Assembly (NCBI GenBank): GCA_020632875.1
Contig: JACKET010000025.1
Location: forward strand, 312 to 64,311
DNA: 64,000 bases
Source of the DNA: Alphaproteobacteria bacterium
GTDB taxonomy: Bacteria > Myxococcota_A > UBA796 > GCA-2862545
Reading direction: 5' to 3'
Shown: one piece after another, positions 30,486 to 47,179 of the stretch
Position numbering within the stretch: the first letter of the stretch is position 1
How the letters are laid out: every line of letters begins with the position of its first letter
Program-made: the position numbers and the translations under genes
Notes under the pieces: model-generated
What the model was told of the DNA's origin: nothing
Seen by the model: only the letters and a program-made list of their open reading frames with translations
The model's database searches: none

Positions 30486-30497
30486 CGTGTGGAACCT

Positions 30498-31448: not shown

Positions 31449-32497
31449 GGCATGACCCGGAGCATCGGGCTCGCCGGGAAGATCCGGTCGAGCACGATGG
31501 CCGCGAGCAGCTCGGCCTCGGTGCGTGCGTTGGCCGCCGGCACGTTGAGGTGCGCGATGGCGAGGCCGCCCGCGGCATTGTCGGTGGCCGGGCCCGTCAC
31601 GACGGTCGCTTCGAGGTTCAGCGCGCGGAGCAGGTGGATGCCGCCCCACGCCGCCACGGGGTCGGTCGCGGAGAGCACGATGCCCGACGCCACGGGCCCG
31701 AGCTCGGCGAGCAGCTCGGACACGCCGTACTCCCCGAGCAACCCGTCACCGAGCTCGACGACGACGAGATCGACGTCCCGCTCGGCGACGTACTGCAGGC
31801 AGCCGCGCGCCACGGGCAGCGGATCGACGTCGCACGTGCTCGGCAGGCCGGCATCGGCGAACGTGCACACGACGCGGGCACCGTGATCGCGCATCTCGAG
31901 CGAGTCGCGGCGGAGCGCGACGCCCGTCACCTTGGTGGCGCCGACGCGCAGGCCGCGGGCGGTCGCCTGGCGGATGAGCGAGCAGGCCGCCGCGGTCTTG
32001 CCGGCGTGCATACAGGTGCCGGCGAGCAGGATCATCGGGGGCAGCGACGCGGGCAGCGCGTCGGCCGGCTTCACCGGGCCCTCGTGGATGGTGGCGGGCA
32101 CGCTCGGCCCGATGTCGGGCACGCACAGCACGGCCCCGAGCACCTCGACCCGCGCCGGAGGCCCGACCTCGGGGTTGTACGACGAGCACAGCCCGATCAC
32201 GCCGCCCTTGTTGAGCAGGTGCAGGATGTCGCCCACGCGGACGGAGGTCGGCACCTCGCCCGTGTAGCCGCGCAGCGCCTTGCGCCCACCGAGCACACCC
32301 GCGAGCAGATCGCCGGCGTGGATCGTCATCATCCGGCCGTGCGGGTCTTCGACCTCGTTGTAGCTCGTCTTCTGATCCAACACGCGAACGGCCAGCACCA
32401 CGCCGCGTTCGGCGGGGATCTCGGAGGTCAGGACGACGGAGTGCGACAGACCCGCGTTGCGGGTGCTGGAGGCGATCTTGTCGAGCTCGAGATGCAT
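31445..32497 (-). CDS. Uncharacterised two-domain protein: N-terminal domain plus BioD/CobB-like P-loop domain (first gene of the arg operon)
   Basis: The start is MHLELDKIASS at 32497. A P-loop-like ILLAGTCMHAGKTAAACSLIRQATARGLRVGATKVTG and a Walker-B-like DLVVVELGDG are present. I recognise no arg-pathway family. Confidence 0.6.
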   Translation of the reverse strand: MHLELDKIASSTRNAGLSHSVVLTSEIPAERGVVLAVRVLDQKTSYNEVEDPHGRMMTIHAGDLLAGVLGGRKALRGYTGEVPTSVRVGDILHLLNKGGVIGLCSSYNPEVGPPARVEVLGAVLCVPDIGPSVPATIHEGPVKPADALPASLPPMILLAGTCMHAGKTAAACSLIRQATARGLRVGATKVTGVALRRDSLEMRDHGARVVCTFADAGLPSTCDVDPLPVARGCLQYVAERDVDLVVVELGDGLLGEYGVSELLAELGPVASGIVLSATDPVAAWGGIHLLRALNLEATVVTGPATDNAAGGLAIAHLNVPAANARTEAELLAAIVLDRIFPASPMLRVMP

Positions 32498-32521
32498 GTA
32501 CGGATCCTCGGGGGCGGTTGA

Positions 32522-32535
32522 TGCATAAAATGCAT
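32522..32535. promoter_or_regulatory. AT-rich palindromic operator candidate (ARG-box-like) upstream of the arg operon
   Basis: TGCATAAAATGCAT has inverted half-sites TGCAT/ATGCA. It lies in a locally AT-rich 194-bp argR/arg-operon intergenic region. Confidence 0.5.
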
Positions 32536-32635
32536 GCGGTATGCCTGTCAACGAAATCGCTCCATGTTTTCCAGAATCTCCTGTAGTCACGGGCGATTTC
32601 GAGGGGTCAGACGCGCGACCACCTTCCCCTATTCC

Positions 32636-32663
32636 TGCATAATTGCGCATGAATATGCGCATA
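32636..32663. promoter_or_regulatory. AT-rich palindromic operator candidate (ARG-box-like) upstream of argR
   Basis: The sequence is TGCATAATTGCGCATGAATATGCGCATA. Its 18-bp core TGCGCAT-GAAT-ATGCGCA (32644-32661) has perfect 7-bp inverted arms, the same length as a classical ARG box. Confidence 0.5.
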
Positions 32664-32691
32664 CTTTCACAGGGCGTGGTACACGGGGGGC

Positions 32692-33108
32692 ATGTCGTGG
32701 CGCACCATCCTCGAAGACCTCATCGAGACCGGCACTTTCCGCACCCAGCGCGAGCTCGCCCGCGCGGTCGAGGCGCGCGTCGGGCGGCGACTGAACCAGG
32801 CCTCGATCTCACGCGAGCTCACGTCCCTCGGGGCCCGCAAGGTCGACGGGGTCTACCGGATCGGGCCGGAGATGGATCTCACGACCCACATCCGGAAGTG
32901 GGGGCGCACGGCGAACGGGTGCCTGGTCGTGCTCCACACCGATCTCGCCTTCGCATCCATCGTCGCCCAGATGATCGACGGCGCGGCCATCGATGGGGTG
33001 CTCGGCACGATCGCGGGCGACGACACGGTCTTCGTCGCCACGGATGGGCCTGCCGCGCACGCCGCGCTGCTCGAGGTGCTCGGCCTCGACGGCACCGAGC
33101 CGCTGTAG
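32692..33108 (+). CDS. argR: Arginine repressor
   Basis: The protein is 138 aa. It has an N-terminal wHTH (FRTQRELARAVEARVGRRLNQASISRELTSLG) and a C-terminal oligomerisation/arginine-binding region (GTIAGDDTVFV). Confidence 0.85.
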   Translation: MSWRTILEDLIETGTFRTQRELARAVEARVGRRLNQASISRELTSLGARKVDGVYRIGPEMDLTTHIRKWGRTANGCLVVLHTDLAFASIVAQMIDGAAIDGVLGTIAGDDTVFVATDGPAAHAALLEVLGLDGTEPL

Positions 33109-34761: not shown

Positions 34762-36279
34762 ATGTCGCGCCCCGACATCGCCCTGCTGTTCCCGCCCCAG
34801 TGGTACTTCGCGGCGGTCCCCGCCGATCTGTCGCACACGGCCGGGACGCTCCGAAGCCGCGGTCGCACGGTCGTCGCCTGGGACGGGTCCGCGGCGCTGC
34901 TCCACGCCCACCTCGGCGATCACCCGGCGCTGCGTGCGTACCGCGACCCCGCGACCTTCGCCGACCCCGCGCGGCACGCGGCCGCCGAGGATGCGCTGTA
35001 CGCCGAGACCCGCCGGCTCTCGGTGCAGTACGGCTGCGACTGGGGCCCCCGCCACCTCCGGTTCCCCGACACCGACGAAGCGGACGTGCCGCGGGCCCTG
35101 CTGCGCGGGCGCGACCCGTTCCGGAACCCCGCCCTGCCCCTGCTGGAGGCCGTCGCGAACGACGTGATCGCGAGCGGGGCGCGGGTCGCCGCGATCGCGC
35201 TCGTGCACCCCGATCAGCGCGTCCAGGCGCTCACGCTCGCCTCGCTGCTGCGCCCCCGCCACGCGCGCGTGATCCTCTATGGCTGCCTCGAGGACGTGCT
35301 CGCGCCGACGGACTTCGCCGAGGCGCTGCTCGGCGATCACGCCCTGTGGGACGTGTTCCACGGGGTGGTGCTGGGCGACGCGGACGACGCCCTCGATCGC
35401 CTGTGCGACGCGCAGGTGGATGCGGCCTCCGTCCCGAACCTGCTGGTGCGCGGGATGACGGCCCTGCCCGCGCGGGTCGAGCAATCGCTGTCGGCCCCGG
35501 CCGACTTCTCGGACGTCCGCCGCGAGCACCACCTGGCGCCGAGCCCGGTCGTCGACCTGCGCCTCGGCCGCGGCTGCCCGTGGGGACGGTGCCGGTTCTG
35601 CGGGATCCAGGCCCACCATCCCGGCTACCGCGCCGGTCCGCTGGAGCGGGTCGTGGAGTCGATGCGGCGGGCCCACGACGCGCTCGGGAGCACGGTGTTC
35701 CGCGTGCGCGACGACCTGCTCACGCCCCGCCAGCTGCGCGAGCTCGGCGAGGCGACGCGCGCCCTGCCCTTCCGGCCGCGGTGGATGGCCCGGGCGCGGT
35801 TCACGTCGGGCCTCACCGCCGACACGCTGCGCACCGCGCGGGACGGCGGGCTCGAGGAGCTGTGGCTGGGCCTCGAGAGCGCGGTGCCCCGCGTGCGCGC
35901 CCTGATGGACAAGGGTGTCGAGCAGGATGTGGTGCTACGGGGCCTCGACGCATGCGCCACGACGGGCATCCGGGCGCGGCTGCTCTGCATGGTCGGCTAC
36001 CCCGGCGAGACCGAGGCCGAGGCGCGGCAGACCGTCGCCTTCCTGCGCGACCACCCGACCGCCGGGTTCTCCGTCACCCCCTTCATGGAGGTGGGGAGCG
36101 CGCCGCTGTCCTCCGCCCCTGCGCCCGACACCCGCACGCGCATCGATCACGTCGTGCCCCACGCACCCCCCGCCTGGCTCGGATCCGTGATGGAGGAGGC
36201 CGTCGCGCTGGGCGCGTCCCGCGCGAGTCCCGGGCCGGATCCCGTGCACCGGTGGCTCTCCGACCTCGCGTCCGGGTAG
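34762..36279 (+). CDS. B12-binding-domain-type radical SAM protein with CX4CX2C cluster motif
   Basis: The N-terminus IALLFPPQWYFAAVPADLSHTAGTLRSRGRTVVAWD resembles class B rSAM proteins. The cluster loop is RLGRGCPWGRCRFCG. LWLGLESAVPRV follows downstream. Confidence 0.75.
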   Translation: MSRPDIALLFPPQWYFAAVPADLSHTAGTLRSRGRTVVAWDGSAALLHAHLGDHPALRAYRDPATFADPARHAAAEDALYAETRRLSVQYGCDWGPRHLRFPDTDEADVPRALLRGRDPFRNPALPLLEAVANDVIASGARVAAIALVHPDQRVQALTLASLLRPRHARVILYGCLEDVLAPTDFAEALLGDHALWDVFHGVVLGDADDALDRLCDAQVDAASVPNLLVRGMTALPARVEQSLSAPADFSDVRREHHLAPSPVVDLRLGRGCPWGRCRFCGIQAHHPGYRAGPLERVVESMRRAHDALGSTVFRVRDDLLTPRQLRELGEATRALPFRPRWMARARFTSGLTADTLRTARDGGLEELWLGLESAVPRVRALMDKGVEQDVVLRGLDACATTGIRARLLCMVGYPGETEAEARQTVAFLRDHPTAGFSVTPFMEVGSAPLSSAPAPDTRTRIDHVVPHAPPAWLGSVMEEAVALGASRASPGPDPVHRWLSDLASG

Positions 36280-36288
36280 GCTCGCACC

Positions 36289-37893
36289 GTGATCGAATCC
36301 GCAGTCGCCGCCGCCCTCGAGTCCCTCGGCCTCCCGCCTCCGCGCCGGATGTTCGCCGTTCGTCACGGCACGGCACGCACCTTCGAGGTCGAGCTGCACG
36401 GCGGCCGATCCGTGTGGGTGCGGGTGCCGATCTCGCGCGCCGGGCTCGCCGCGCTCCGCCGCGAAGAGGCGGCGCTCGCGCTGCTCCGCAGCTCGCCGGC
36501 GGGCGACCCGATCGCCTCTCCCTACAGCGTGATGGCCTACGGCGATCTCGTGCTCGCCGTGCTCCCGCGCCCGCCGGGCCGCCCCGCGAGCGACGCGCTG
36601 GGCGCCGACGGCACCGCGATCGCCCGCGCCGTGGGCGCCTGGTTGGCCCGGGTGCCCGCCGATCAACCGGCGCACGGCACGATGGCGCGCGACGGGGTCT
36701 TCGTCCGCGACCAGCCCACCTGGGCAGCGACGCTCGACGCGCACCTCCAGCGCATCCGCACCCGGCTGGCGCGGTCCGGCTGGGGGCTCGGCACCGTCGA
36801 AGAGCAGCTCGCACGCCGCGTGAGCGACGGCCTGGCCGCCGCGGCGCGCGCCGACGCGTTCGCCGTCGTCCACCGCGATCTGGCGCCCGACCGGGTGTAC
36901 GTCCGCGATGGCCTGATCACGGGCGTCGTCGACTGGGAGCGCGCGTGGCTCGCCGATCCCCTGCTCCAGTGGGCGCCGCTCGTCGTGCAGCCCCCCGCCG
37001 TGCTCGGCCCCATGCTCGACGCCCACGGCGCCGAGGCCGTGCGCGACGGCGCCGATCGGCTCGAGGGCTACGCGTCCTTCGAGGTGCTCGCGCGCTACGA
37101 GGCCCGGCTCGACGCCGCCATCGACGACAACGCCCGCGCGGCGGCCGCCGGCCTGGCCGTGCACGAGGCGGGCGTCCTGGGCTCCGGCGTGCGCGCCCTG
37201 CTCGACGCCGCCGTCCCGACCGGCGGGGTGTGGCCGGGCTGGGTTCCGGATCCCGCCGCGGTGCTGCTGCGGCGCGTGCTCGTGCTGCTCGCCACCGAGC
37301 CCGACCCGTTCGACCGGCGCATCGAGCACCTGCTCGCGGGCGCCCTGCTCTCCGGGCACCCCGAGAACCCCGAAGGCGAGGCGTGGCGCGCGCTGACGTT
37401 CGACGCGGCGCGCGGCGTCGACACCGCCGGCGAAGCGCTCCCCGGCCCCACCGACGACCGTCTCGACCGGGCGCTGCGCGTGCCCGGCCCGTTCGCCTCC
37501 GGTGCGCTGACCGCGTGGCTCGTGCGCACCGCGCTCGAGCGCGTCGACACGGTGGATCCCGCGGTGCGCGCCGCCTGCGCGCGCCGCGTCGAGTGCCTGG
37601 CGTGCCTCGACGAGCGGCCCGCCATCGTCGAGCCCGAGGTCACGCTCCTGCACCTGCTCCTCGGCCTCGCTGCCTCGATCGGCACGGCGCACCAGCGCAC
37701 CTGGGCACGCCGGCTGCGCGAGGAATGGTCCGACATCGCGCCCACGGTCGACGCCGCACCCTTCGAGGATGCGCTGCGCGATCCCCGCGCGACCATCGCC
37801 AGCGCGCCCGCGCTGCTGGCCCTCCTCACGATCCCCGCCGATCAGCTCCCGGCCGATCGCGCGGCGGTTCTCGCAGCGGTTTCTTCCAGATAG
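36289..37893 (+). CDS. Kinase-fold phosphotransferase (APH/ePK-like) with about 270-aa helical C-terminal extension
   Basis: The GTG start lies 9 nt after the rSAM stop. The catalytic loop is AVVHRDLAPDRVYV, and GVVDWERAWLADP is the DxD/DWE metal site. Confidence 0.7.
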   Translation: MIESAVAAALESLGLPPPRRMFAVRHGTARTFEVELHGGRSVWVRVPISRAGLAALRREEAALALLRSSPAGDPIASPYSVMAYGDLVLAVLPRPPGRPASDALGADGTAIARAVGAWLARVPADQPAHGTMARDGVFVRDQPTWAATLDAHLQRIRTRLARSGWGLGTVEEQLARRVSDGLAAAARADAFAVVHRDLAPDRVYVRDGLITGVVDWERAWLADPLLQWAPLVVQPPAVLGPMLDAHGAEAVRDGADRLEGYASFEVLARYEARLDAAIDDNARAAAAGLAVHEAGVLGSGVRALLDAAVPTGGVWPGWVPDPAAVLLRRVLVLLATEPDPFDRRIEHLLAGALLSGHPENPEGEAWRALTFDAARGVDTAGEALPGPTDDRLDRALRVPGPFASGALTAWLVRTALERVDTVDPAVRAACARRVECLACLDERPAIVEPEVTLLHLLLGLAASIGTAHQRTWARRLREEWSDIAPTVDAAPFEDALRDPRATIASAPALLALLTIPADQLPADRAAVLAAVSSR

Positions 37894-37974: not shown

Positions 37975-40962
37975 ATGGAACGCACCCGCCGTTCGTCTCA
38001 GTCGCTCGAACAGCCGAAGACCCGTACCGCTTCGCTCGACGCGCCCACGAACAACGAGAAGGCCTCGAACTGGGGCAACGGTCTGAGCGCCGAGAGCGTG
38101 CACGCTCCGTCCGGCAGCGGCTCGGGCTCGGGCATGGCCAACAGCTTCCTCGGCATCAGCCAGGATCTGAGCGGCAGCACCAGCCAGTTCGGCCAGCCCG
38201 GCGAGCGCACGTGGAGCGACTGGACCGCAGGCGGCTTCGGCGCGGCCTACGGCGGCGAGTTCGGCGCGGGCCCCTACGAGCGCACGCTCGGCGGCGGCAT
38301 CGGCGCGGGCGGTGGCTTCGGCCAGTGGTCCGAGGTCAACGGCAAGCGCACCAGCAACGGCTTCGGCGGCGGCGCCGCGGTGGCCGGACGGTTCGACGAG
38401 AGCACCAGCCTGTGGGGCCAGTCCCTCGGCATGGGCGGCGACGTCTACAGGGGTGTGGGCGGCAGCGCCTACGAGTTCAGCGAGGGCAACAAGTCCGGCT
38501 ACGGCATCACCGGCGGCTACACGCCCCTCGGGTTCAACGACGCCTATGCGTCCGTGAACACCGGCCTCGGCAGCAACCGCACCAGCGTCGGCCAAGCCGA
38601 GATCGGCCGCGTGGGCGGCAACCTCGAGGGCTACACCACCGACAAGGGTGGCTGGGGCCTCAACGGCGGCTGGTCGCAGGGTCGCAACACCTTCCGCGAC
38701 ATCAACAGCACCACCACCACGGGTCTCGGCACCACCGACATCAGCGTCGGTCAGGTCTCCCAGGGCAAGTACATGCAGGGCAAGGCCGGGCGCGACGACG
38801 ACGGCCGGTACTTCGTGGGCGGCAAGAAGGGCGGGTCGCTCAGCGTGAACGATGTCGACCTGAACCACACGTGGGGCAACGGCATGCAGACCACGGCCCA
38901 CCTCGGCAGCTACGGCGGCAACGGCAAGGAGTTCGAGGCGGGCTTCAACCCGAACACCATGACCGCCGACTTCCAGGGCGTGTACGGGTCCGGCAAGAAG
39001 ATCAAGGATGTGAGCGTCGGCACCGACCTGCCCGGCGGCGGCAACTTCAACGCCTCCCTCGGCCAGTTCCAGAACGGCAGCCAGGTCCGCATCGACCGGT
39101 CCACCATCGGCCCCGACGGCGCGCACATCCGCGGCGGCGGCCACATGAGCGACGGCTTCGAGCTGCAGAACGCCAAGGTCGGCGGCGGCTGGGATGGCGT
39201 CTACACCACCGAAGCGAGCCTCGGCCGGTTCTCGAACCGCACGCAGATCGACGGCGCGTCGCTCGACATCGACGGCAACGGCATCCGCGCGGGCGTCCAG
39301 CAGGTCCGCACCGGCGGGTTCGTCGCGCAGAACATGCACGCCGAGCAGAATTTCGGCGACGGCGCCCTGAAGACCAACGCGAACGTCGGCGAGGTGTCGA
39401 ACGACATCCTGCTCAACGGCGGGCGCGCGAGCATCGACGGCAGCGGTGTCCACGCCGGCTTCGACGAGCTCGACTTCGGTGGCGTGCGCGTGAAAGACGT
39501 GAACTACAACGCCAGCGTCATGAACGGTGCGGCCGAGCTCGACGCGCGGATGGGCAGCTTCACGAATGGCAACAACATCAAGGGCGGCAACGTCGACATC
39601 ACGCGCAACGGCGTGAACGCGTCGGTCGAAGAGTTCGGCATCATGGGCACCGACGTGAACGACGTGCACGTCGGTGTCAAGGGGCCGGGCGGCACGCACG
39701 CCAACGCCGACCTCGGTGCGTACCACACCGGCATCAGCGGCAAGAACGCCTACGCCGAGATCAACGGCAGCGGCGTGAACGTCGGCGCCGAGCACCTCGA
39801 CTACAACCAGCACCAGCTGAAGGACGTGAACCTCGAGGGCGGCATCGACGGCATCTACAACACGCACGCGCGGTTGGGCGAAGGCCACCTGAACCAGGCG
39901 TCCGCCGACAACGTGAACCTCTCGCTGAACGGCGACGGGCTCTCGGGCTCGGCCGACAACCTGAACTACAGCTACCTCGGCGTCGAGGACTTCAGCGCCG
40001 GCCAGTCCTTCGGCGACGGAGCGGTCGAGACCGAGCTCTCCCTCGGCAAGGGCGACTACCTCGGCGCGGGCGCCGATCACGTCGAGTTCCAGTCGAACCT
40101 GATCGACTCCAGCGGGTCGGTCGACGGGCTCAACGCGCACGGCCTCAACCTGCAAGACCTCAACGCGCACGTGGGTGTCGGCGATGCCGGCCTCGACGTG
40201 GGCGCGAAGGAGCTCGACGTGCTCGACCTCAACGTCGGGCACGCCGACTTCCACCGCGAGAACTTCGGCCTCTCCGGCGGCGGCAACATCCAGGATGCCC
40301 AGCTCGACGTGCTCGACGCGAAGGGTCTGGGTGGTGGCCTCTCCTGGGGCGACGACAAGATCGCCGAGGCACGCACCGATCTGAACCTCTCGGCGGGCGT
40401 CGACCAGGCGAGCGGCGAGTGGGACGTGCTCTCCGGCACGGCCAACGGCCAGTTCACCAACGCGAACGCCTCGCTCATGACCGACAACACCCACCTCGAA
40501 GCGTTCGGGCACAGCCTCGACCTCGGGCGCACGGGCGCGTCGATCAACGCGAGCGGCGCGGGCGCCGTCGACCTCTCGAAGGGCCAGGCCAGCGGCAACG
40601 TCAACTTCGCGGGCTCCGAGCTCGCGCTGTTCGGCAACAGCGTCACGGTCGGCGACTGGGCGCAGGCGAGCGGCAGTGTCGACGCCTCGAAGGGCCAGGC
40701 GAACTTCAACGTCGGTGGCGAGAACGGCGTCGGCGCGGATGTCGACATCGGCGCGGGCAACCTCGACATCAACGCGTTCGGTCACAAGATCGACGTCGAC
40801 GAGGGCATCCGCGACGGCGTGTCTGCAGTGAAGGACGGCGCCGCTTGGGTCGGCGACAAGGCGAGCAGCGCGGCCAACTGGGCCGGCGACCGCCTCTCCG
40901 ACGCGGGCAGCGCGATCTCCAGCGGCGCCAGCAAGGCCTGGGACGTCGTCACCAGCTGGTAG
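37975..40962 (+). CDS. Large (995 aa) Cys-free Gly/Asn/Asp/Ser-rich repeat protein, no signal peptide, unknown family
   Basis: An AGAGGTG RBS lies 5-6 nt upstream of the ATG. Third positions are consistently G/C in this frame; the 1690-aa antisense ORF is a shadow. The repeat architecture is described in the findings. Confidence 0.85.
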   Translation: MERTRRSSQSLEQPKTRTASLDAPTNNEKASNWGNGLSAESVHAPSGSGSGSGMANSFLGISQDLSGSTSQFGQPGERTWSDWTAGGFGAAYGGEFGAGPYERTLGGGIGAGGGFGQWSEVNGKRTSNGFGGGAAVAGRFDESTSLWGQSLGMGGDVYRGVGGSAYEFSEGNKSGYGITGGYTPLGFNDAYASVNTGLGSNRTSVGQAEIGRVGGNLEGYTTDKGGWGLNGGWSQGRNTFRDINSTTTTGLGTTDISVGQVSQGKYMQGKAGRDDDGRYFVGGKKGGSLSVNDVDLNHTWGNGMQTTAHLGSYGGNGKEFEAGFNPNTMTADFQGVYGSGKKIKDVSVGTDLPGGGNFNASLGQFQNGSQVRIDRSTIGPDGAHIRGGGHMSDGFELQNAKVGGGWDGVYTTEASLGRFSNRTQIDGASLDIDGNGIRAGVQQVRTGGFVAQNMHAEQNFGDGALKTNANVGEVSNDILLNGGRASIDGSGVHAGFDELDFGGVRVKDVNYNASVMNGAAELDARMGSFTNGNNIKGGNVDITRNGVNASVEEFGIMGTDVNDVHVGVKGPGGTHANADLGAYHTGISGKNAYAEINGSGVNVGAEHLDYNQHQLKDVNLEGGIDGIYNTHARLGEGHLNQASADNVNLSLNGDGLSGSADNLNYSYLGVEDFSAGQSFGDGAVETELSLGKGDYLGAGADHVEFQSNLIDSSGSVDGLNAHGLNLQDLNAHVGVGDAGLDVGAKELDVLDLNVGHADFHRENFGLSGGGNIQDAQLDVLDAKGLGGGLSWGDDKIAEARTDLNLSAGVDQASGEWDVLSGTANGQFTNANASLMTDNTHLEAFGHSLDLGRTGASINASGAGAVDLSKGQASGNVNFAGSELALFGNSVTVGDWAQASGSVDASKGQANFNVGGENGVGADVDIGAGNLDINAFGHKIDVDEGIRDGVSAVKDGAAWVGDKASSAANWAGDRLSDAGSAISSGASKAWDVVTSW

Positions 40963-41006
40963 ACGGCGCCGGCTGCGGTACAGTCGCGGCCTGACAGGGA
41001 GTCCCA

Positions 41007-41462
41007 ATGCAAGTCTTCGCCCTCACCCCCGAGGGGATCCTGGGCTGGGCACAGCGCAAGAACGTGCGCCTGCTCGAGAACAAGGAGCTCGGCCAGCTCG
41101 CGCTCCAGCGGCCGGGTGATCCGCAGCAGAACCTGCGGTTCATCCCCCGCCCCGACCGGAACCTGATGACGTTCGCGCTTCCGCTGCTGTTCACGGTGCC
41201 GGAAGACCGCATCCCCGCGTTCTGCGTGGCGCTGTCGCTCGCGAACAGCGCGACGTTCGCGGGCTGCTGGACGCTCAACCACCAGCGCGGCGAGCCCTAC
41301 TTCCGGCTCACCGTGCCGTCGGCGGGCACCGGCTGGACCGACACCGCGCTCGACTTCACGGTCGGCCTGATGTTCTCGAGCGGCGACCGCGTGGGCCCGA
41401 ACCTCATGAAGATCGCGCTCGAGGGCGCGGATCCCGCGACGGTTCTCGACCCCCCGAAGTAG
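41007..41462 (+). CDS. Small YbjN-family / type III secretion chaperone-like protein (tentative)
   Basis: The protein is 151 aa and has a GGGAG RBS. Its start lies 45 nt after the repeat-protein stop. The pattern ...LRFIPRPDRNLMTFALPLLFTVPEDRIPAFCVALSLANSATFAGCWTLNHQRGEPYFRLTVP... resembles YbjN-like folds. Confidence 0.55.
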   Translation: MQVFALTPEGILGWAQRKNVRLLENKELGQLALQRPGDPQQNLRFIPRPDRNLMTFALPLLFTVPEDRIPAFCVALSLANSATFAGCWTLNHQRGEPYFRLTVPSAGTGWTDTALDFTVGLMFSSGDRVGPNLMKIALEGADPATVLDPPK

Positions 41463-41477
41463 CCACCGGCGCGACGC

Positions 41478-42254
41478 TCACCGCATCTGATAGGGCGTCG
41501 CGTCGTTGATCGTGCTCTCGAGCTTCAGCGAGTGCGTGGGCACCGAGCCCGCGATCAGCCCCTGGATGCCGCCCGCACGCGTCGTCGTGACGAGCATGTC
41601 GCCACCGGGCCCCCGGATGTACAGGCGGTCGTGCTCGACCGGGTATTCGTACGTGTAGATGGCGGAGCGCGTGCCCTGCGGCACCTCGACCGTCACGCTG
41701 TACACCTTCGCATCGGGGTGCGCCTCGTAGGCCTGGCGGAACGCGCGGTACACGTGCTCGGGCTTCAGCTCGCGCTCTTCGACCGCATCGGACTTCGCGA
41801 TGTTCCAGCCGGAGCGCATCACCTTCTCGAGCGGGCCGGGCGCCCAGCCGAGCTCGACGTGCACCCGGTCGCCCTCGCGCGTGATCGGCGGGTTCTCGAA
41901 GTGCTGGCGCACCTTCTCTTCGACGCGCGCGCGCAGCTCGGGCGTGTCGGTGAGCGCCGTGGTGTACATGCCCTTCGAGATCCGGATGAAGGCGTCGAGC
42001 TCGTTCTTGTCGTTCGGCAGCTCGCCCTTCCACTGGCGGCGGCGCGTGTTCATCGCCTTGTCGATCACCGGATCGACCACGGCGGGGTCGTCGAGGTTGT
42101 ACGCCGCGGTGTGCGCCCAGTTGGCGGGGTGCTCGACGAAGGCCTGACGGACGTAGGCACGGGGATCGGACACGGTCTCGGACACTTGGCCTCCCTGGGG
42201 GGACGGAACGGAAGCGGGCGGCGAGCCGCAGGCGAGGAGGAGCAGCCAGATCAC
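41478..42254 (-). CDS. Hypothetical lipoprotein
   Basis: The GTG start gives VIWLLLLACGSPP, a lipobox. The start overlaps the upstream glycosyltransferase stop (GTGA). Confidence 0.65.
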   Translation of the reverse strand: MIWLLLLACGSPPASVPSPQGGQVSETVSDPRAYVRQAFVEHPANWAHTAAYNLDDPAVVDPVIDKAMNTRRRQWKGELPNDKNELDAFIRISKGMYTTALTDTPELRARVEEKVRQHFENPPITREGDRVHVELGWAPGPLEKVMRSGWNIAKSDAVEERELKPEHVYRAFRQAYEAHPDAKVYSVTVEVPQGTRSAIYTYEYPVEHDRLYIRGPGGDMLVTTTRAGGIQGLIAGSVPTHSLKLESTINDATPYQMR

Positions 42255-43408
42255 GGTTTCGCTCCGAGGTGGGACAGGTACAGCGCCGCACCGGTGGGGA
42301 GCGCGCGTGCCTGCTGAACGTAATCGGCCCGGCGCCGCGCTTCTTCCGCGCGTCGCTCGCGATCGGACAGCAGCCCCATCGCCGTGGACACGAACGCCTC
42401 GGGGGCGCGGATCTCGGTGGGGTTGAGGAGCGCACCGTACGGATTGCCCGCGAGGACGGGGCCGAGCGTGTCCCACATGCTGTAGGGCCACATCAGGAAG
42501 CGGTACACGTCGATCCCGCCGAGCGGGCCGGCCTCGCTGTTCACGACCGTCATCACGGGCACGCCGGACGCGATGGCGAGGGCGTTCGTCATCGCGGACG
42601 CGTTGAGCGACAGCACGCAGTCGACGGACGCGACGAGCCCGCGGAACGCCTGCGGGGGCAGGTTCGGGATCCAGTGGAACCGGTCGCCCAGGTGCTCCTT
42701 GAGGCGCAGCGGCACGGGGCCGAGCTGCACGACGTGGACGTGATCCGGCAGGCTGCGCAGGCGCTCCGTGAGGACGGGAGGCACCGCGCGCATCACGGCA
42801 TCCACCTCGGCGAGCGCGTACTTCCGGTGCTGCCAGGCCGACGTGGCGAGGAACAGGATGGGCGCGTCGTCGGGCAGCCCGTAGCGCCCGCGCTCCACGG
42901 GGAGCTCGGGATCCGGGAGGATGCAGAACGTCTTCTCGGCGCTCGGCCGGATGAACGGGACGGGCGCCATGCGCCACGGGAACCCCGCCAGCTTCGGAGA
43001 GAACCCGAGCCCGTCGCTCGGGTGCGCATCGAGCCCCGTGACCTCGGGCGCGTGCCACGTGTCGACGAACACGATCCGCCCACCGAGCTTCGCAAGGAAT
43101 CCGGGGTCGACCCGGCGGCGCTCGAGGCTGTTCGAGGCCATCGCGAAGTCGGCCAGCAGCACGCCGTCTGGACGCCCCTTCGCGATCGCGTCGGCGAACA
43201 CGGGCTCGATGGCGCCCCACCCCTCCGGCGGCGCGACGTGCAGCTCGAAGTCCTCGCCGGCGAACACCTTGTGGACCGCGGGATCCGCGACGACCACGAC
43301 CTCGTCGCCGCGGGCGCGCAGCTCGCGGCCGATGTCGCGACCGACCTGCGCCTCGCCCGTTCCGGAGCGACTCAGCGCGACGATCAGATGGCGTCCCCGA
43401 CGGCTCAT
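42251..43408 (-). CDS. GT-B-fold glycosyltransferase-like protein (family uncertain)
   Basis: The protein is 385 aa with a two-Rossmann-like layout: an N-terminal HLIVALSRSGTGEAQVGRDIGRELRARGDEVVVV and a C-terminal half with VDCVLSLNASAMTNALAIASGVPVMTV. Confidence 0.55.
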   Translation of the reverse strand: MSRRGRHLIVALSRSGTGEAQVGRDIGRELRARGDEVVVVADPAVHKVFAGEDFELHVAPPEGWGAIEPVFADAIAKGRPDGVLLADFAMASNSLERRRVDPGFLAKLGGRIVFVDTWHAPEVTGLDAHPSDGLGFSPKLAGFPWRMAPVPFIRPSAEKTFCILPDPELPVERGRYGLPDDAPILFLATSAWQHRKYALAEVDAVMRAVPPVLTERLRSLPDHVHVVQLGPVPLRLKEHLGDRFHWIPNLPPQAFRGLVASVDCVLSLNASAMTNALAIASGVPVMTVVNSEAGPLGGIDVYRFLMWPYSMWDTLGPVLAGNPYGALLNPTEIRAPEAFVSTAMGLLSDRERRAEEARRRADYVQQARALPTGAALYLSHLGAKP

Positions 43409-43488: not shown

Positions 43489-45450
43489 TTGACAGGGTTC
43501 CTGCTCTCCAACCTCGCACTCGCCTTCGCTTCGTGGCGGGCCGCGGAGTCGTTCGACGACCTCGATGACCCGTGGGCGCGCGCGGCGACCGGTCTGCTGG
43601 CGTTCCAGCTCGGCGCCGCGGGGCTGGCGCTGCTGCTGGCGCTCGCCGGGCTGCTCACGCCGACCGCGCAGATGGCGGGCGCGGGCGTGCTCGCCGTCGC
43701 GAGCCTCGGCCTGAAGCGCGCCGGGCCCGCGGCCTCCGCGCCGCTCGAGCGCGCCGACCACCTCGGAGTGGCGGTGCTCGTCGCGACCCTGGCGGTCTGG
43801 GCGCTCGGCCCGCCGCTCACGGGCACCGAGCTGACCTACGACGACGCGACGTACCACGCGGCCATCCCAGCCTGGATGCTGACCGAGGGGCACTTCGCCA
43901 TCGCGCCGTTCACGTACCAGGCGTACTACCCGCTGCAGACCGAGCTCGTGTCGCTCTGGTTCATGATCCCGACGCACGACCTGACCCACGCCGGGCTCGG
44001 TCCGTTGCTGCACGCCCTGCTGTTCGCCACGGCCGGCACGGCGCTCGCGCGCCACCTCGGCGCCAGCACGGGCAGCGGCGCGGCGTTCGTCGCCACCCTG
44101 CTCGTGTCGCGCCGCACCCTGCAGGGCCTGCACTCGACGTCGGCGCCCGACCTCTGCGCTACCGCGAACCTGGTGACCGCGCTGTTGTTCGCGATGACCG
44201 TGCCCGGGCGCCTCGGCGCCCTCCTGTTCGGCGTGGCGGCCGGCGCCGCGCTCTCGACGAAGATCACGACGGCTTCGGCGCTCGTGCTCGCCGCGGCCTG
44301 GTACGCGTGGCAGAACCGCGCGCAGCCCGCGCGGATCGGCATCGCCGCGGGGGTCGGCATCGCGCTCGGGTGCGGCTGGTACGTGCGGAACCTCGTGCTG
44401 ACGGGCAATCCGCTGTTCCCCGCCGCGCTCGGCCCCTTCGAGGGCCCGCTCGACCCGGAGACCCAGTACGTCAGCTCGCTGCGTCCGTTCCTCGACCCCG
44501 CCCACCCGCGGATGGTGTGGAACGTCGTGAAGACGCGCCTCAACTGGCCCACGGTGCTCGGCATCGGCGCGCTGGTGGGGCTCGGCGCGTCGATCGTCGC
44601 GGGATGGCGGCGGCGGCGCGCGGATCTGGTCCTCGTCGGGATCATCGGGATCCTCGGGATCCTCCTGCTCCCGCGACAGCCGTTCTCCGGCACGGTGAAT
44701 CGCCCGGACCAGCCGCTCCACGCGCTGATCCGCTTCGTGATGCCCGCCGTGGCGATGGGCCTCGTGGGCTTCGCGGGCGCGGTGGGGCCGTCGGCGCGCG
44801 GGGTCTTCGCGGGTGTCGCGCTGTGGGCGCTCACCCTGTTCGGCAGCACCGACCTCGTCCGGACGCGCGACTTCGCGGCGCTCGGCCTCGGCATCGCTGT
44901 CGCGGTGGGCCTCGGCGCCCTCGCGGTGCGCGGGCGGGCCCCCGGGCGTCGGACGGTCGCGGCGCTCGTGCTCGGCGTCCTGCTCGTGCTGGCGGCGCGA
45001 ACGCCGGCGAAGCGGCGGGCGACGATCCTCCAGCTCCCCCGGATCTCGCTGTCCGCGGGCAACCAGGTCGAGCTGTTCGTGGCGATCAACCGCCTGAAGC
45101 GCGGCTCCGTGCTGGCGCAGGTCGCCGACGTGCCGGTGTCGAACGACCACTCGGTCCGGGCGCTGGGGATGTCGCTCCAGCACCGGTACTTGGCGATCGA
45201 CCTCGACGGCACGCCCCTGCGCCCGCTGCACGAGCGCTGGCGCGACGAGCCGGCGGGCTGGTGGTGGCGCTGGGGGCGCGCGCAGTCGGACGGGTTCCTC
45301 GAGAACCTCGCGCAGACCGACGTGGACTTCCTGATCGTGTCGACGTGCAACGAGGTCGACACCTGGCCCCCGGTGCGCGAGAAGCTGCTCGAGCACCCCG
45401 AGCGGCGCATCCACGCGTCGGACTGCGGCGAGATCTGGCGCGCGCGCTGA
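43489..45450 (+). CDS. GT-C-fold polytopic membrane glycosyltransferase (PMT/ArnT-like)
   Basis: More than ten TM helices are present. The first-loop acidic motif is TYDDATYHAAIP. A C-terminal soluble domain follows. The TTG start is tentative. Confidence 0.6.
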   Translation: MTGFLLSNLALAFASWRAAESFDDLDDPWARAATGLLAFQLGAAGLALLLALAGLLTPTAQMAGAGVLAVASLGLKRAGPAASAPLERADHLGVAVLVATLAVWALGPPLTGTELTYDDATYHAAIPAWMLTEGHFAIAPFTYQAYYPLQTELVSLWFMIPTHDLTHAGLGPLLHALLFATAGTALARHLGASTGSGAAFVATLLVSRRTLQGLHSTSAPDLCATANLVTALLFAMTVPGRLGALLFGVAAGAALSTKITTASALVLAAAWYAWQNRAQPARIGIAAGVGIALGCGWYVRNLVLTGNPLFPAALGPFEGPLDPETQYVSSLRPFLDPAHPRMVWNVVKTRLNWPTVLGIGALVGLGASIVAGWRRRRADLVLVGIIGILGILLLPRQPFSGTVNRPDQPLHALIRFVMPAVAMGLVGFAGAVGPSARGVFAGVALWALTLFGSTDLVRTRDFAALGLGIAVAVGLGALAVRGRAPGRRTVAALVLGVLLVLAARTPAKRRATILQLPRISLSAGNQVELFVAINRLKRGSVLAQVADVPVSNDHSVRALGMSLQHRYLAIDLDGTPLRPLHERWRDEPAGWWWRWGRAQSDGFLENLAQTDVDFLIVSTCNEVDTWPPVREKLLEHPERRIHASDCGEIWRAR

Positions 45451-47179
45451 GCCGGGTGGCCGCTGTGGGGTCTGACCCCACTGAGGCCACCTGACATGGG
45501 TGGCCGCTGTGGGGTCTGACCCCACTGAGGCCACTGGAGAGATGATCCGCTTGCGCAGCAAGTGGAGCTTCTCTCGTTGTTTCGTCGCCCGGCCTGTCGG
45601 CGGCTGATGACGCCGGATGGGTTACACTGTGGAAGGTCTTGCGCACAAGTGCCACGGCCAGCTTTGGTCGCGTCCGGGCGGGACAGTCCATCAGGGCCTC
45701 GGACTGGCCGAACCGACGCGCATGCTTTGCAGGAGACCGTTCGGACTCGATCGCCGCACGACTGGTCGTAGTGGAAGCGACGACCGCTGCAGCAAGTCGC
45801 GAGTCCTCGATGCTGCCTTCGCATCCGGAGAGGGCACACGAGGGCGCGAGCGGCTCTGACCGAAACCAGCGTGGCGAGCGCGGCCTACGGATCTGTCCCC
45901 GGTCAGTGCGGAGTGAGTCGCTGAACAACGCGATGCCGGGTACCCGCCGGGTGTGGCGAGCTCCGGCGGGGCGGAGCCGTGGCCGGGCGAAATGAGACGA
46001 CGCCTGCCACCCACCTGCCGGTTGAGCGTGAGCCCGCGGTAGCGGCTCACGGCTCCTAACGTATGGAAAGCGCTTCTTCAACGCCAGGAAGCGCGACTCG
46101 AACACGTGGTACGACGCGGCCGCCAGGACGAAGGTCGCCACCGAGAGCACCACGCTCATCACGAGCATCGTCGCGAGCCGCGACCCGAACAGCGGCCCGC
46201 CGCGGCCGGCGAGACGCGCGAAGTGCAGCAGGATGGGATGCAGCACGTACATCCCGTAGCTGTACGTCCCCACCCGCATCAGCGGGCCCCACGAGAGCGC
46301 GCGCGACACGAGCGAATCGCGCGCGTTGGTCAGGATCAGGCCGAGCAGCCCGGTGTAGACGACGGCGATCTCGGAGTACAGCAGCACCTGCACGGCGAGG
46401 TTCGGCCGCCGCCACTGGATGCCGCCGTTCCGGATGCCCTGCAGCACCATCAGCCCGCCCGCGATGGCCACCATCCAGCCGAACACGGCCCTCCAGCGGT
46501 CGAGCCCACCCTCCCGATGCGCCAGCACCGCGAGCACGGCACCGCCCGCCAGCGTGTCCATCCGGGTGAACGGGTACGTGTAGATCGACACGGGCCCCTG
46601 CGGCGCGAGCGGCGTCCCGAAGATCAGGCCGCGCAGCACGGCCGCCGCGACGACGAGCGACAGGCACACGGCGAGCAGGCGCTTCGGTGGCGTCCACAGC
46701 ACGACGAACGGCCACACCAGGTAGAACTGCTCCTCGACCGCGAGCGACCAGAGGTGCGTGAGGCCGGGCGTGCCCTGGTTCCAGCCGTACAGCGCAGCCT
46801 TGAAGTTCGACAGGTACAGCCAGTGCCACCACAGGCCCGCCCGCGGGTCGTAGTGCAGGAGCGGCGAGCTGCGGAACAGCGTCAGCAGGCCGATGAACAG
46901 GTAGAACAGCGGGAAGATCCGCAGGAACCGGCGTGCGTAGAAGGCCTTGAAGTACCGCGGCGAATCCCGCGACTCGATGAGCAGGCTCGTGATCAGGAAG
47001 CCCGACAGCACGAAGAACAGGTCCACGCCGGACCACCCGCTCCCGATGACGGCCACGAGCGCGCGGTCCACGGGCCCGACGGGGTCGTAGCGCGCGGTGA
47101 AGTGGTACAGCATGACCCCGAGCACGGCGATGCCCCGCAGCCCGTCGAGCGGCGCGAGGTGTGCGTCCCGGATGCGCAT
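45086..47179 (-). CDS. Acyltransferase family 3 (OafA/YrhL-like) membrane protein; only about 46060-47179 looks coding, and the ORF lacks a stop at the expected end
   Basis: The N-terminal 370 aa is a typical acyltransferase_3: LDGLRGIAVLGVMLYHF, GVDLFFVLSGFLIT, HLWSLAVEEQFYLVWP and YHVFESRFLALKKRF. The remaining roughly 330 codons have A/T-ending codons and low-complexity R/A/S/P sequence. They overlap the convergent GT-C gene. Confidence 0.6.
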   Translation of the reverse strand: MRIRDAHLAPLDGLRGIAVLGVMLYHFTARYDPVGPVDRALVAVIGSGWSGVDLFFVLSGFLITSLLIESRDSPRYFKAFYARRFLRIFPLFYLFIGLLTLFRSSPLLHYDPRAGLWWHWLYLSNFKAALYGWNQGTPGLTHLWSLAVEEQFYLVWPFVVLWTPPKRLLAVCLSLVVAAAVLRGLIFGTPLAPQGPVSIYTYPFTRMDTLAGGAVLAVLAHREGGLDRWRAVFGWMVAIAGGLMVLQGIRNGGIQWRRPNLAVQVLLYSEIAVVYTGLLGLILTNARDSLVSRALSWGPLMRVGTYSYGMYVLHPILLHFARLAGRGGPLFGSRLATMLVMSVVLSVATFVLAAASYHVFESRFLALKKRFPYVRSREPLPRAHAQPAGGWQASSHFARPRLRPAGARHTRRVPGIALFSDSLRTDRGQIRRPRSPRWFRSEPLAPSCALSGCEGSIEDSRLAAAVVASTTTSRAAIESERSPAKHARRFGQSEALMDCPARTRPKLAVALVRKTFHSVTHPASSAADRPGDETTREAPLAAQADHLSSGLSGVRPHSGHPCQVASVGSDPTAATRLSARARSRRSPTRGCAARGARAASRAPGARCRPRCTSTRSGSPRRSARGSRGTRPTARAPSATTSPPARRASARAAGAGACRRGRSPSTGAGATSPAPGPSGRSTPARRRPAPARSRASGG
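45454..45534. repeat. Two tandem copies of a 37-bp palindromic (hairpin-forming) repeat
   Basis: GGGTGGCCGCTGTGGGGTCTGACCCCACTGAGGCCAC occurs at 45454-45490 and identically at 45498-45534. The outer arms are GTGGCC/GGCCAC and the inner arms GTGGGGTC/GACCCCAC. Confidence 0.9.
45537..45585 (+). terminator. Putative intrinsic terminator after the GT-C gene
   Basis: The hairpin is GAGAGA-tgat-CCGCTTGC-gca-GCAAGTGG-agct-TCTCTC. It is followed by GTTGTTTCGT. Confidence 0.4.

Follow-up and report, generated by a model that had tools for sequence, protein, structure and literature searches.

The described systems closest to the one reported here are the YbjN family of small alpha/beta proteins and the class I chaperones of type III secretion (T3S). 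The YbjN family (PF10722, clan CL0097) includes Escherichia coli YbjN (Protein Data Bank (PDB) entry 6vu7), Erwinia AmyR (5fr7) and Deinococcus DR1245 (4h5b), and the genes of class I T3S chaperones, such as ExsC, SycE, SicP, CesT and SpcU, adjoin genes of far larger proteins that are disordered in part. YbjN-fold proteins also work outside secretion (PMC5398634, PMC3575483, PMC13466201); there is no evidence for a secretion-associated role of AmyR (PMC5398634), and the partner of DR1245 is the DNA-repair protein DdrB (PMC3575483). In this report, we describe a gene pair in a stretch of 64,000 nucleotides, hereafter the window (contig JACKET010000025.1, positions 312 to 64,311, assembly GCA_020632875.1). 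The first gene (37975-40962, + strand) encodes BIG, our name for a Cys-free, acidic, Gly/Asn/Ser-rich and signal-less protein of 995 aa with predicted all-beta repeats (MCB9679378.1, 'hypothetical protein'), and the second (41007-41462, +) encodes SMALL, a protein of 151 aa (MCB9679379.1); P and L numbers denote related proteins and loci, respectively. SMALL has the predicted alpha/beta fold and the size (~150 aa) of the YbjN family, and its gene, like those of the class I T3S chaperones, lies beside that of a much larger and partly disordered protein; however, the SMALL family differs from these chaperones in its isoelectric point (pI 5-9) and in that no genes of a T3S system (T3SS) were seen nearby, and its presumed client, a 100-kDa all-beta repeat protein, is unlike any known client of YbjN-type or T3S chaperones.

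We favour an explanation, to which we assign a probability of about 0.4, in which BIG is an envelope or extracellular beta structure that is assisted by a chaperone, exported without Sec, partnered by a lipoprotein and acted on by modifying enzymes. This explanation is preferred because an extracellular-type composition is found across the family, a chaperone fold is combined with tight synteny, a lipoprotein gene is a constant companion and the C-terminal module of BIG is portable. The lipoprotein gene, the accessory enzymes and the portable module are all absent from the original prediction, which had been made from the sequence of the window.

The large protein and its chaperone-fold neighbour

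The BIG open reading frame opens with ATG behind a GAGGTG ribosome-binding site located 6-11 nt upstream, and its G+C content is 0.63, 0.48 and 0.948 at the first, second and third codon positions, the last value (GC3) being like that of the neighbour genes. The proposal that BIG is a real and native gene is borne out, and the N- and C-terminal sequences quoted for it in the original prediction are correct as read from the open reading frame. Counted against 18 neighbour genes (9447 aa), BIG is clearly the strong compositional outlier that it had been taken for: its 995 residues include no Cys (1.08% in the neighbours) and 10 Pro (1.0 versus 6.8%), and it is rich in Gly (19.3 versus 10.3%) and Asn (7.8 versus 2.0%) and poor in Arg (3.2 versus 7.3%), with 8.9% Ser, 7.7% Asp and a pI of 4.6. 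At the Cys frequency of the neighbours, the probability of 995 Cys-free residues is 2e-5. The peak hydrophobicity of BIG in a 19-residue window is 0.64 on the Kyte-Doolittle scale; therefore, as had been claimed, it contains neither a signal peptide nor a transmembrane helix.

These traits are shared by the family. Among its 29 long members, 22 have no Cys and the remaining seven have at most two, Gly content is 14.5-21%, and pI is 4.0-5.9 except in P0054 (7.6). No obvious signal-peptide-like hydrophobic N-terminus was found when all 29 were inspected by eye, and two of them, P0038 and probably P0054, look 5'-truncated. The terminal residue is W or F in 24 of the 29 (W in the window copy), and the residues before the terminal W of BIG are without the alternating beta-signal pattern of outer-membrane barrels. 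Low Cys, acidic pI, high Gly, Asn at four times the local average and the lack of a signal peptide are typical of non-classically exported or extracellular proteins of Gram-negative bacteria. Harpins, which plant pathogens secrete by a T3SS, are also Gly-rich, Cys-free, acidic and signal-less, but they are much smaller proteins of ~35-45 kDa, for the most part helical or disordered, with genes in hrp T3SS clusters, whereas BIG is of 100 kDa, is predicted to be all-beta and has no T3SS context.

The view that BIG cannot be assigned to a known family was upheld by every search made. No match was found in Pfam or NCBIfam even at E<=1, neither BIG nor SMALL matched PADLOC or PHROGs, and a PDB sequence search with a profile of nine BIG homologues gave no meaningful match. 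Family profiles of RHS/YD-repeat shells, autotransporters, curli/Fap amyloids, S-layer families and ice-nucleation proteins likewise gave no match to BIG. In addition, secretion-system genes were seen neither in the annotated parts of the window, in line with the original prediction, nor in the related loci; this scope applies to all statements below on exporter or secretion genes. BIG, the lipoprotein and the C-terminal module lie outside every described family.

The SMALL gene starts 44 nt after the BIG stop codon behind an AGGGAG ribosome-binding site and has a GC3 of 0.947. No terminator-like site was seen between the two genes, as noted earlier, in a sigma-70/intrinsic-terminator scan that is uninformative in DNA of 72% GC. 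The YbjN or secretion-chaperone fold first suggested for SMALL is supported on three sides. PF10722 is matched by 17 of 24 SMALL relatives at E<=0.1 (best 5.5e-8); the AlphaFold2 (AF2) model of SMALL has a predicted local distance difference test score (pLDDT) of 94.2 and a predicted template modelling score (pTM) of 0.87; and Foldseek aligns this model with E. coli YbjN (6vu7) at a template modelling (TM) score of 0.70-0.74, with a probability of 1.00 for YbjN, AmyR, ExsC, DR1245, SpcU, SycE, SicP and CesT. The window copy itself has no Pfam match even at E<=1 and none in NCBIfam, and a PDB sequence search with the SMALL profile (A2) returned nothing meaningful. SMALL has the YbjN/class I T3S-chaperone fold and represents a new, divergent branch of an established fold family. 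The pI is 6.6 in the window copy and 4.9-9.1, mostly >5.5, in the family.

The N-terminal ~86 residues of BIG (37975-38232, +) are a candidate partner-binding or export region. This region is polar and, in an AF2 model of BIG built on a 9-sequence alignment, predicted to be disordered (pLDDT <50 for residues 1-86; 29 N-termini compared); it keeps W33, G36 and L65 invariant among nine homologues and carries an 'SWGNG[FL]' motif. A large client with disordered ends and an adjacent class I-like chaperone is an arrangement of a known kind. One alternative is that BIG is a substrate of a type-III-like or other contact-dependent system (such as a needleless T3SS* or a type IV secretion system) and works on prey cells as a translocator, a pore former or a toxin, with SMALL as a true class I chaperone that binds a chaperone-binding region at the N-terminus. 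Its appeal lies in the fold of SMALL and its bicistronic place after the presumed client, in the Ser/Thr/Arg-rich composition of the polar N-terminus, whose ~85 disordered residues are about the size of a chaperone-binding domain, and in the weak and local matches of the long-strand sheet to outer-membrane barrels. In Myxococcus xanthus, a needleless T3SS* serves predation (PMC12075869). However, we consider this alternative unlikely: neither the annotated parts of the window nor any of the related loci showed T3SS genes, SMALL is not acidic, the strands of BIG have no hydrophobic belt suited to a membrane, a strict partnership with a lipoprotein and glycosylation-type enzymes is atypical of effectors, and the lipase-like proteins that share the C-terminal module have no chaperone gene nearby.

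Distribution and synteny with a lipoprotein gene

The BIG family is very sparse. A word-indexed search of 5.8 billion proteins returned 9 relatives, and when 1.84 billion cluster representatives were searched exhaustively with HMMER, the nine-homologue profile matched 76 clusters at E<=1e-3, of which ~25 are full length (850-1283 aa). All 76 come from metagenomes or metagenome-assembled genomes (MAGs), and most of those with a name bear the label Myxococcota. When each GTDB species was represented by one genome, a scan detected 12 loci, every one in a MAG, and most of these carry the label Myxococcota, Myxococcales or Polyangia.

We compared 11 BIG loci: the window, L001/L008, L002/L009, L003, L004, L005/L006, L010, L011, L012, L017 and the contig of P0004. 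Of 12 distinct loci with inspected flanks, 11 carry both genes; with L020, the contig of P0021 and L021 added, BIG and SMALL occur together in 13 of 14 locus rows, which agrees with the pairing of the two genes proposed in the original prediction. In 10 of these 11 BIG loci, and also in L020 and the contig of P0021, SMALL is the gene immediately 3' of BIG; in L003, it is 1.3 kb off on the other strand. This synteny persists to ~31-33% identity. In L021, a SMALL homologue (61% identity) is found on a 7.7-kb contig that carries no BIG and on which no lipoprotein gene was found; it lies at L021:2340-2789 and adjoins an RNase T-like gene, a glyoxalase gene and three tandem AIM24 paralogues. Two loci contain broken reading frames: BIG is split into three frame-shifted pieces in L020 (4962-7916), and SMALL is called as a 76-aa fragment in L004 (13039-13479), where tblastn aligns 145 residues. 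These are either assembly errors or the result of pseudogenisation.

A third gene accompanies the pair. In the window, it lies at 41478-42254 (-), starts with GTG and encodes a lipoprotein of 258 aa with the lipobox LLLAC|GS ('IWLLLLACGS'), which is 53% identical (tblastn) to its homologue in L001. The family comprises proteins of ~230-290 aa, the lipobox is present in eight of its nine members (alignment A5), and its profile matched nothing in Pfam or the PDB. Homology was tested at the DNA level in ten of the 11 BIG loci, all but the contig of P0004, and a member of the family was found beside BIG in all ten: in the window, L001/L008, L002/L009, L004, L005/L006, L012 and L017; in L011, with an hhalign probability of 99.5%; in L003, where it is directly 5' of BIG on the same strand; and in L010. 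In the contigs of P0004 and P0021, genes of matching size and position are probably its counterparts; the former has genes of 256 and 265 aa, and the latter a gene of 258 aa, between SMALL and the DUF6365 gene described below. In L020, the lipoprotein gene was not detected on a contig that stops ~60 nt past SMALL. BIG, SMALL and the lipoprotein constitute a conserved three-gene module, and a partner that is exported by Sec and Lol argues for an envelope function. The L010 homologue (8255-8992, -) begins 'MAKTPWEIARS...' and, unlike the other eight, has neither a signal peptide nor a lipobox; it is either a cytoplasmic variant or the product of a mis-assembled 5' end.

Hairpin repeats and the C-terminal module

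The core of BIG, at residues 84-941 (38224-40797, +), is a predicted beta meander of ~46 successive antiparallel strands joined by turns of 2-4 residues (DSSP on the AF2 model). The model has a mean pLDDT of 76.4 and a pTM of 0.61, with 329 residues at a pLDDT of at least 90 and low-confidence regions at residues 1-86 and 943-995. In the stretches 84-273 and 491-866, the predicted strands have a length of 22-25 residues, and in 279-488 they are divided into halves of ~11 residues. Five clear tandem repeats of 55 aa occupy residues 427-701 (39253-40077, +), and they are supported by sequence autocorrelation, which has its maximum at a lag of 55 residues (z 3.9), and by the turn motif [LIV][DNTS][GR][NSD]G[LIV], which occurs five times (at 432, 487, 542, 596 and 651) when 0.09 are expected. 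A hidden Markov model (HMM) made from the five repeats detects degenerate copies at residues 285-426 and 712-758 (E 2e-7 to 2e-4), and an insertion of ~110 aa in P0003 matches two additional units. Because the modelled strands are 22-25 residues long and the turns 2-4 residues, one 55-aa repeat would be one long beta hairpin, each with a turn of the form [LIV]-[DN]-G-[NSD]-G-[LIV]. The original prediction had described a repeat unit of 20-25 aa; this length belongs instead to a single strand of the hairpin, and the true unit is 55 aa. A DNA tandem repeat of 165 nt was sought in the BIG gene and none was found, so that the repeats are old; a recent repeat expansion was rejected for want of any long DNA tandem repeat.

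In Foldseek searches of the PDB with the BIG model, the ApoB100 beta belt, LPD-3, the TcdB-TccC shell and vitellogenin had the lowest E-values, and numerous outer-membrane barrels came next. Every TM-score normalised to query length (TMq) was <=0.16, and the TcdB-TccC match is local only (TM 0.06). We read these matches as local similarity of hairpin ribbons and not as homology or a common global fold. Like ApoB100 (9ea7), LPD-3/BLTP1 (9cap) and vitellogenin, which have the best PDB E-values, BIG would form a long and unbroken antiparallel meander, but it differs from them in having a TM of 0.08-0.12, no sequence relation, a weak apolar face, a bacterial origin and a far smaller size. Similarly, BIG resembles outer-membrane barrels with lipoprotein partners (LptD/LptE, TonB-dependent transporters and SusC/D) in its Gly/aromatic-rich strands, its C-terminal aromatic residue and the lipoprotein gene, and differs from them in that it is signal-less family-wide, has no hydrophobic belt and gives weak Foldseek matches with a TM <=0.23. 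One face of the BIG strands has a mean Kyte-Doolittle value of ~+0.6 versus -1.5 or less for the other; Ala, Gly, Ser and Val abound on this apolar face, and the hydrophobic residues are spread along the 24-residue strands. So weak a difference in hydrophobicity between the faces argues against a barrel embedded in lipid, and an outer-membrane barrel was rejected on the grounds that BIG has no signal peptide and no hydrophobic belt.

The best-conserved segment of the BIG family is a beta module of ~100 aa near the C-terminus (40519-40809, +), defined by representative-library matches at profile positions ~850-990 and by alignment A6. Its consensus is 'NFAGSELALFG..GDWAQASG.VD..G.A.FNVGGENGVGADV..G.GNLD.N.FG..IDVDEGIRD', and across the matches it reads 'N[LF]AGS..L....GDWAQASG.VD.S.G.A..N.GG.NGVGADV.L..GNLDLN.FG..IDVD.GIRD'. 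It contains sub-repeats of ~17 residues, of which one unit is absent in some homologues, and a PDB sequence search with its profile (A6) gave no match. Many matches of the exhaustive search span profile positions ~850-990 alone. The module also terminates signal-less lipase-like proteins of 520-735 aa (P0069, P0074, P0081, P0082, P0085, P0087 and P0102), in which a disordered Gly/Ala/Pro-rich N-terminus is followed by a central region with GHSGGGQ (GxSxG) and then by the module; these carriers have no Pfam match. Their genes are located at L007:673-2721, L013:39-2201, L014:8261-10453, L015:803-3007, L016:4911-7103, L018:837-3032 and L019 ~8900-10600, and the module-only loci have neither a YbjN-like SMALL nor a lipoprotein gene as a neighbour.

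In BIG, the module is followed by a tail at residues 941-995 (40795-40959, +), which consists of five 11-residue repeats and has a conserved AWDxVTSW end. The tail is predicted, at low AF2 confidence, to form a helix at 945-973; its repeats would be moderately amphipathic as a helix, with a hydrophobic moment (muH) of 0.35-0.49 at 98-100 degrees, and its length differs among homologues in steps of ~11 residues. Over all carriers, the module is followed by tails of 10 to >450 aa, which often consist of 11-residue repeats; P0085 and P0102 have long arrays of these. Many tails have at their end, or inside, one of the aromatic motifs AWDxVTSW, NWLTG and NWLFG. In P0066 (921 aa) and P0054 (918 aa), the hairpin repeats and the module fill the N-terminal half and are followed by ~270-470 low-complexity residues, which in P0066 are rich in Gln/Ala/Ser/Lys. 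Since the module occurs on unrelated passengers, it behaves like a targeting, export or anchoring domain, and its portability is apparent from the distribution of the sequence; the hundreds of residues that follow it in P0066 and P0054 mean that it is not a strict C-terminal signal. A bolder proposal is that the module and the 11-mer tail together form a new portable signal for non-Sec export or surface targeting in uncultured Myxococcota, its cargo being a rod or belt of ~46 strands with its own chaperone and lipoprotein and also lipase-like enzymes. This would amount to an unrecognised kind of secretion or assembly system and to a novel fibrous or belt-like beta architecture; we regard it as speculative and rather unlikely.

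A common C-terminal element on a repeat protein and on lipase-like enzymes recalls the substrates of type I secretion systems (T1SS), which include RTX adhesins, RsaA and family I.3 lipases and which, like BIG, are large, acidic, Cys-free, Gly-rich and signal-less with a conserved beta region near the C-terminus. BIG might accordingly be a T1SS-type substrate, an RTX-like adhesin or S-layer analogue, in which the module would be a non-canonical beta roll beside a C-terminal signal, and an ABC exporter, a membrane-fusion protein and a TolC-like channel encoded elsewhere would export both BIG and the lipase-like proteins. The order of passenger, Gly/Asp-rich beta module and C-terminal tail would fit such a substrate, as would the ~17-residue sub-repeats of the module with one unit absent in some homologues. 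T1SS lipases carry a GHSLGG nucleophile motif, which GHSGGGQ resembles, and the lipase-like relatives might be analogues of the family I.3 lipases, in which a lipase domain is followed by a beta roll and then by the signal. Against this, BIG contains no GGxGxD motif, in keeping with the lack of an array noted in the original prediction, and has no HemolysinCabind match in Pfam; an RTX array was rejected on the first of these grounds. Neither an ABC exporter nor membrane-fusion or outer-membrane-factor genes were seen, tail length beyond the module is highly variable (10 to >450 residues), and BIG differs further in its chaperone-fold and lipoprotein partners; T1SS substrates are not known to require T3S-type chaperones. 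We therefore hold a T1SS-type substrate to be quite improbable.

The same proteins bear on a different view, in which BIG is never exported and forms a cytoplasmic coat. Its weakly amphipathic beta belt and the amphipathic 11-mer helices at its C-terminus would attach it to a membrane or another lipid surface, be it the inner leaflet, lipid bodies or vesicles, with SMALL as a holdase or regulator and with the lipase-like proteins targeted to the same surface by the shared module. The best Foldseek matches are lipid-binding belts or grooves, namely ApoB100 (E 3.8e-8, probability 0.89), LPD-3 and vitellogenin, and ApoB beta belts combine with amphipathic helical repeats, an arrangement comparable to the core and 11-mer tail of BIG. 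Tails of 11-residue repeats follow the module in BIG, P0085, P0102 and P0003, and P0085 has a weak match (E 1.4e-4, below the cut-off) to the Senescence domain, which binds lipid droplets. A lipase-type GxSxG in the module sharers, a patatin-like gene in the L005 cluster, the lack of a signal peptide in BIG and of an exporter nearby, and the signal-less lipoprotein homologue of L010 would all be in keeping with such a coat. However, the TM of just 0.08-0.12 to ApoB and LPD-3 indicates local similarity, the apolar strand face is weak (~+0.6) and contains many Gly, Ala and Ser, Cys avoidance and Asn enrichment are unusual in a cytoplasmic protein, and eight of the nine partner proteins are true lipoproteins. 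On balance, we think a lipid coat rather unlikely.

We thus return to export and an envelope or extracellular location for BIG as the explanation that we favour. Secretion of BIG is suggested by its composition, by synteny and by the portability of the module; the predicted fold of SMALL suggests that it binds BIG as its chaperone, and the roles proposed for the C-terminal module, the lipoprotein partnership and the modification of BIG are read in the same way from sequence. In this model, BIG would be made in the cytoplasm without a signal peptide, and SMALL, probably as a dimer like its structural relatives, would bind it, most likely at the conserved disordered N-terminal ~85 residues, and keep the aggregation-prone Gly/Asn-rich hairpins from folding or aggregating prematurely. 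BIG would then be exported by a route that is not encoded locally, with the C-terminal module and the amphipathic 11-mer tail probably serving as the targeting element. Outside the cytoplasm, it would fold into an antiparallel stack of ~46 strands, ~20 nm in length if the sheet is open, and cooperate with the lipoprotein as an anchor, platform or plug. In many genomes, BIG or its anchor would probably be glycosylated, or modified in some other way, by the GT-B-like DUF6365 protein and a sugar-1-phosphate nucleotidyltransferase, joined in the clade of the window by a class-B radical SAM enzyme and an APH-like kinase.

Several points weigh against this explanation. No exporter is encoded near any BIG locus, SMALL is neutral to basic, unlike the acidic class I chaperones (pI about 4-5), and YbjN-fold proteins often have partners that are not secretory. 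The SMALL homologue of L021 is encoded without BIG on its contig, the lipoprotein homologue of L010 is signal-less, and the module, given the sequences of P0066 and P0054, is not strictly a C-terminal signal. In addition, the alignment under the BIG model is shallow, and every BIG member is known from MAGs or metagenomes alone.

If the favoured explanation holds, a chaperone and its dedicated client would be paired at a locus that belongs to no known secretion island, the client being unlike those characterised, and one member of the YbjN family, which is widespread but poorly understood, would gain a concrete partner and job. The envelope and extracellular structures of bacteria would be extended by a new large architecture of beta-hairpin repeats, and the portable module makes it possible to test how proteins without a signal peptide leave the cells of Myxococcota or are targeted in them. 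This phylum is known for predation and complex surfaces; here, the bearers are uncultured lineages alone, the family is very rare, and function is read from composition, predicted structure and neighbourhood.

Accessory genes, surroundings and host lineage

Next to the triad in the window, a gene at 42251-43408 (-) encodes a DUF6365 protein of 385 aa (PF19892, E 8e-41, 140.7 bits versus a cut-off of 32.5). The sequence GTGA at 42251-42254 (-) joins the TGA stop codon of this gene to the GTG start of the lipoprotein gene, and the overlap suggests translational coupling of the two. DUF6365 is probably a GT-B-type glycosyltransferase, as suggested by weak Glyco_transf_4 matches over the N-terminal domain of two homologues (E 0.013-0.016); a literature search on DUF6365 found no papers. 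The gene is present in 6 of the 11 BIG loci, usually together with that of a sugar-1-phosphate nucleotidyltransferase resembling RmlA, GlmU and MurU, which is absent from the window and L001, and a phosphoesterase or sulfatase-type enzyme often accompanies DUF6365 loci. A repeat-rich beta protein beside the gene of a soluble glycosyltransferase-like protein (DUF6365) and a sugar-1-phosphate nucleotidyltransferase recalls surface repeat proteins that are glycosylated in the cytoplasm, namely the adhesin systems AIDA-I/Aah, TibA/TibC and HMW1/HMW1C; however, those adhesins belong to known families and use Sec and type V secretion, and for BIG, glycosylation is a suggestion. The excess of N-glycosylation sequons (NxS/T) in the family is mild and inconsistent (0 to 3.5 sd over seven homologues).

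Two further genes precede BIG on the same strand. The run is opened by the gene of a class-B (B12-binding-type) radical SAM enzyme of 505 aa (34762-36279, +; PF04055), which has weak NCBIfam matches to several class-B families, among them PhpK, ApyD, rSAM_ocin_1, HpnJ and AprD4, all far below the cut-offs, and which is kept in the window, L001, L002, L004 and L010. Directly 5' of BIG is the gene of an APH-fold kinase-like protein of 534 aa (36289-37893, +), whose homologues match PF01636 (APH) and which has weak PDB matches to hygromycin and macrolide phosphotransferases; it is kept in the window, L001, L002, L004 and the contig of P0004. Sugars are activated and transferred by a route in which an APH-fold anomeric sugar kinase acts together with a nucleotidyltransferase and a glycosyltransferase, as with AmgK and MurU, and such a route suggests that the accessory enzymes modify BIG or its anchor. 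The radical SAM and kinase-like genes are both absent from L003, L005, L011, L012 and L017, where the triad of BIG, SMALL and lipoprotein persists.

The position of these two genes directly 5' of BIG in one clade is part of what could be said for BIG as a giant scaffold modified by the radical SAM enzyme and the kinase, or as a fibre of the phage-tail-fibre type with SMALL as its assembly chaperone. An assembly-chaperone gene often follows a tail-fibre gene, and among predicted viral structures (BFVD, searched with Foldseek), Pseudomonas phage phiPMW provides the top match of BIG, a putative tail fibre (E 5.5e-11, probability 1.00). This idea is nevertheless very improbable, since that match has a TM of 0.09, PHROGs gave no match, no phage genes surround the locus, and the triad is intact in the five loci without the radical SAM and kinase-like genes. 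An anti-phage defence system or a prophage element was likewise rejected in view of the null PADLOC and PHROGs searches and the housekeeping flanks.

These flanks contain genes of arginine biosynthesis with ArgR, PEP synthase, a PknB-like kinase, a DASS transporter, a cytochrome c and a biotin carboxylase subunit. The arginine-biosynthesis cluster (carbamoyltransferase, class-III aminotransferase and semialdehyde dehydrogenase) lies with an ArgR-like repressor gene at 28406-33108, 5-10 kb 5' of BIG, and confirms a chromosomal housekeeping context. A search of the whole window against Rfam returned nothing. Beyond the DUF6365 gene are those of a 653-aa membrane protein with a weak LIC_10190-family match (43489-45450, +) and a 697-aa Acyl_transf_3 protein (45086-47179, -); neither is conserved in L001, and they are therefore probably unrelated genes of envelope modification.

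In the source record, the organism is given as 'Alphaproteobacteria bacterium' (locus tags H6737_30010/30015). The nearest relative of the window locus is in a Myxococcota MAG (L001/L008), with 71% identity in BIG and 75-79% in neighbour genes; five genes of the window cluster are nearest to this MAG, at 54-83% identity, and the window has a GC content of 72% and the PknB-like kinase gene. The label Alphaproteobacteria given by NCBI is probably a mis-assignment.

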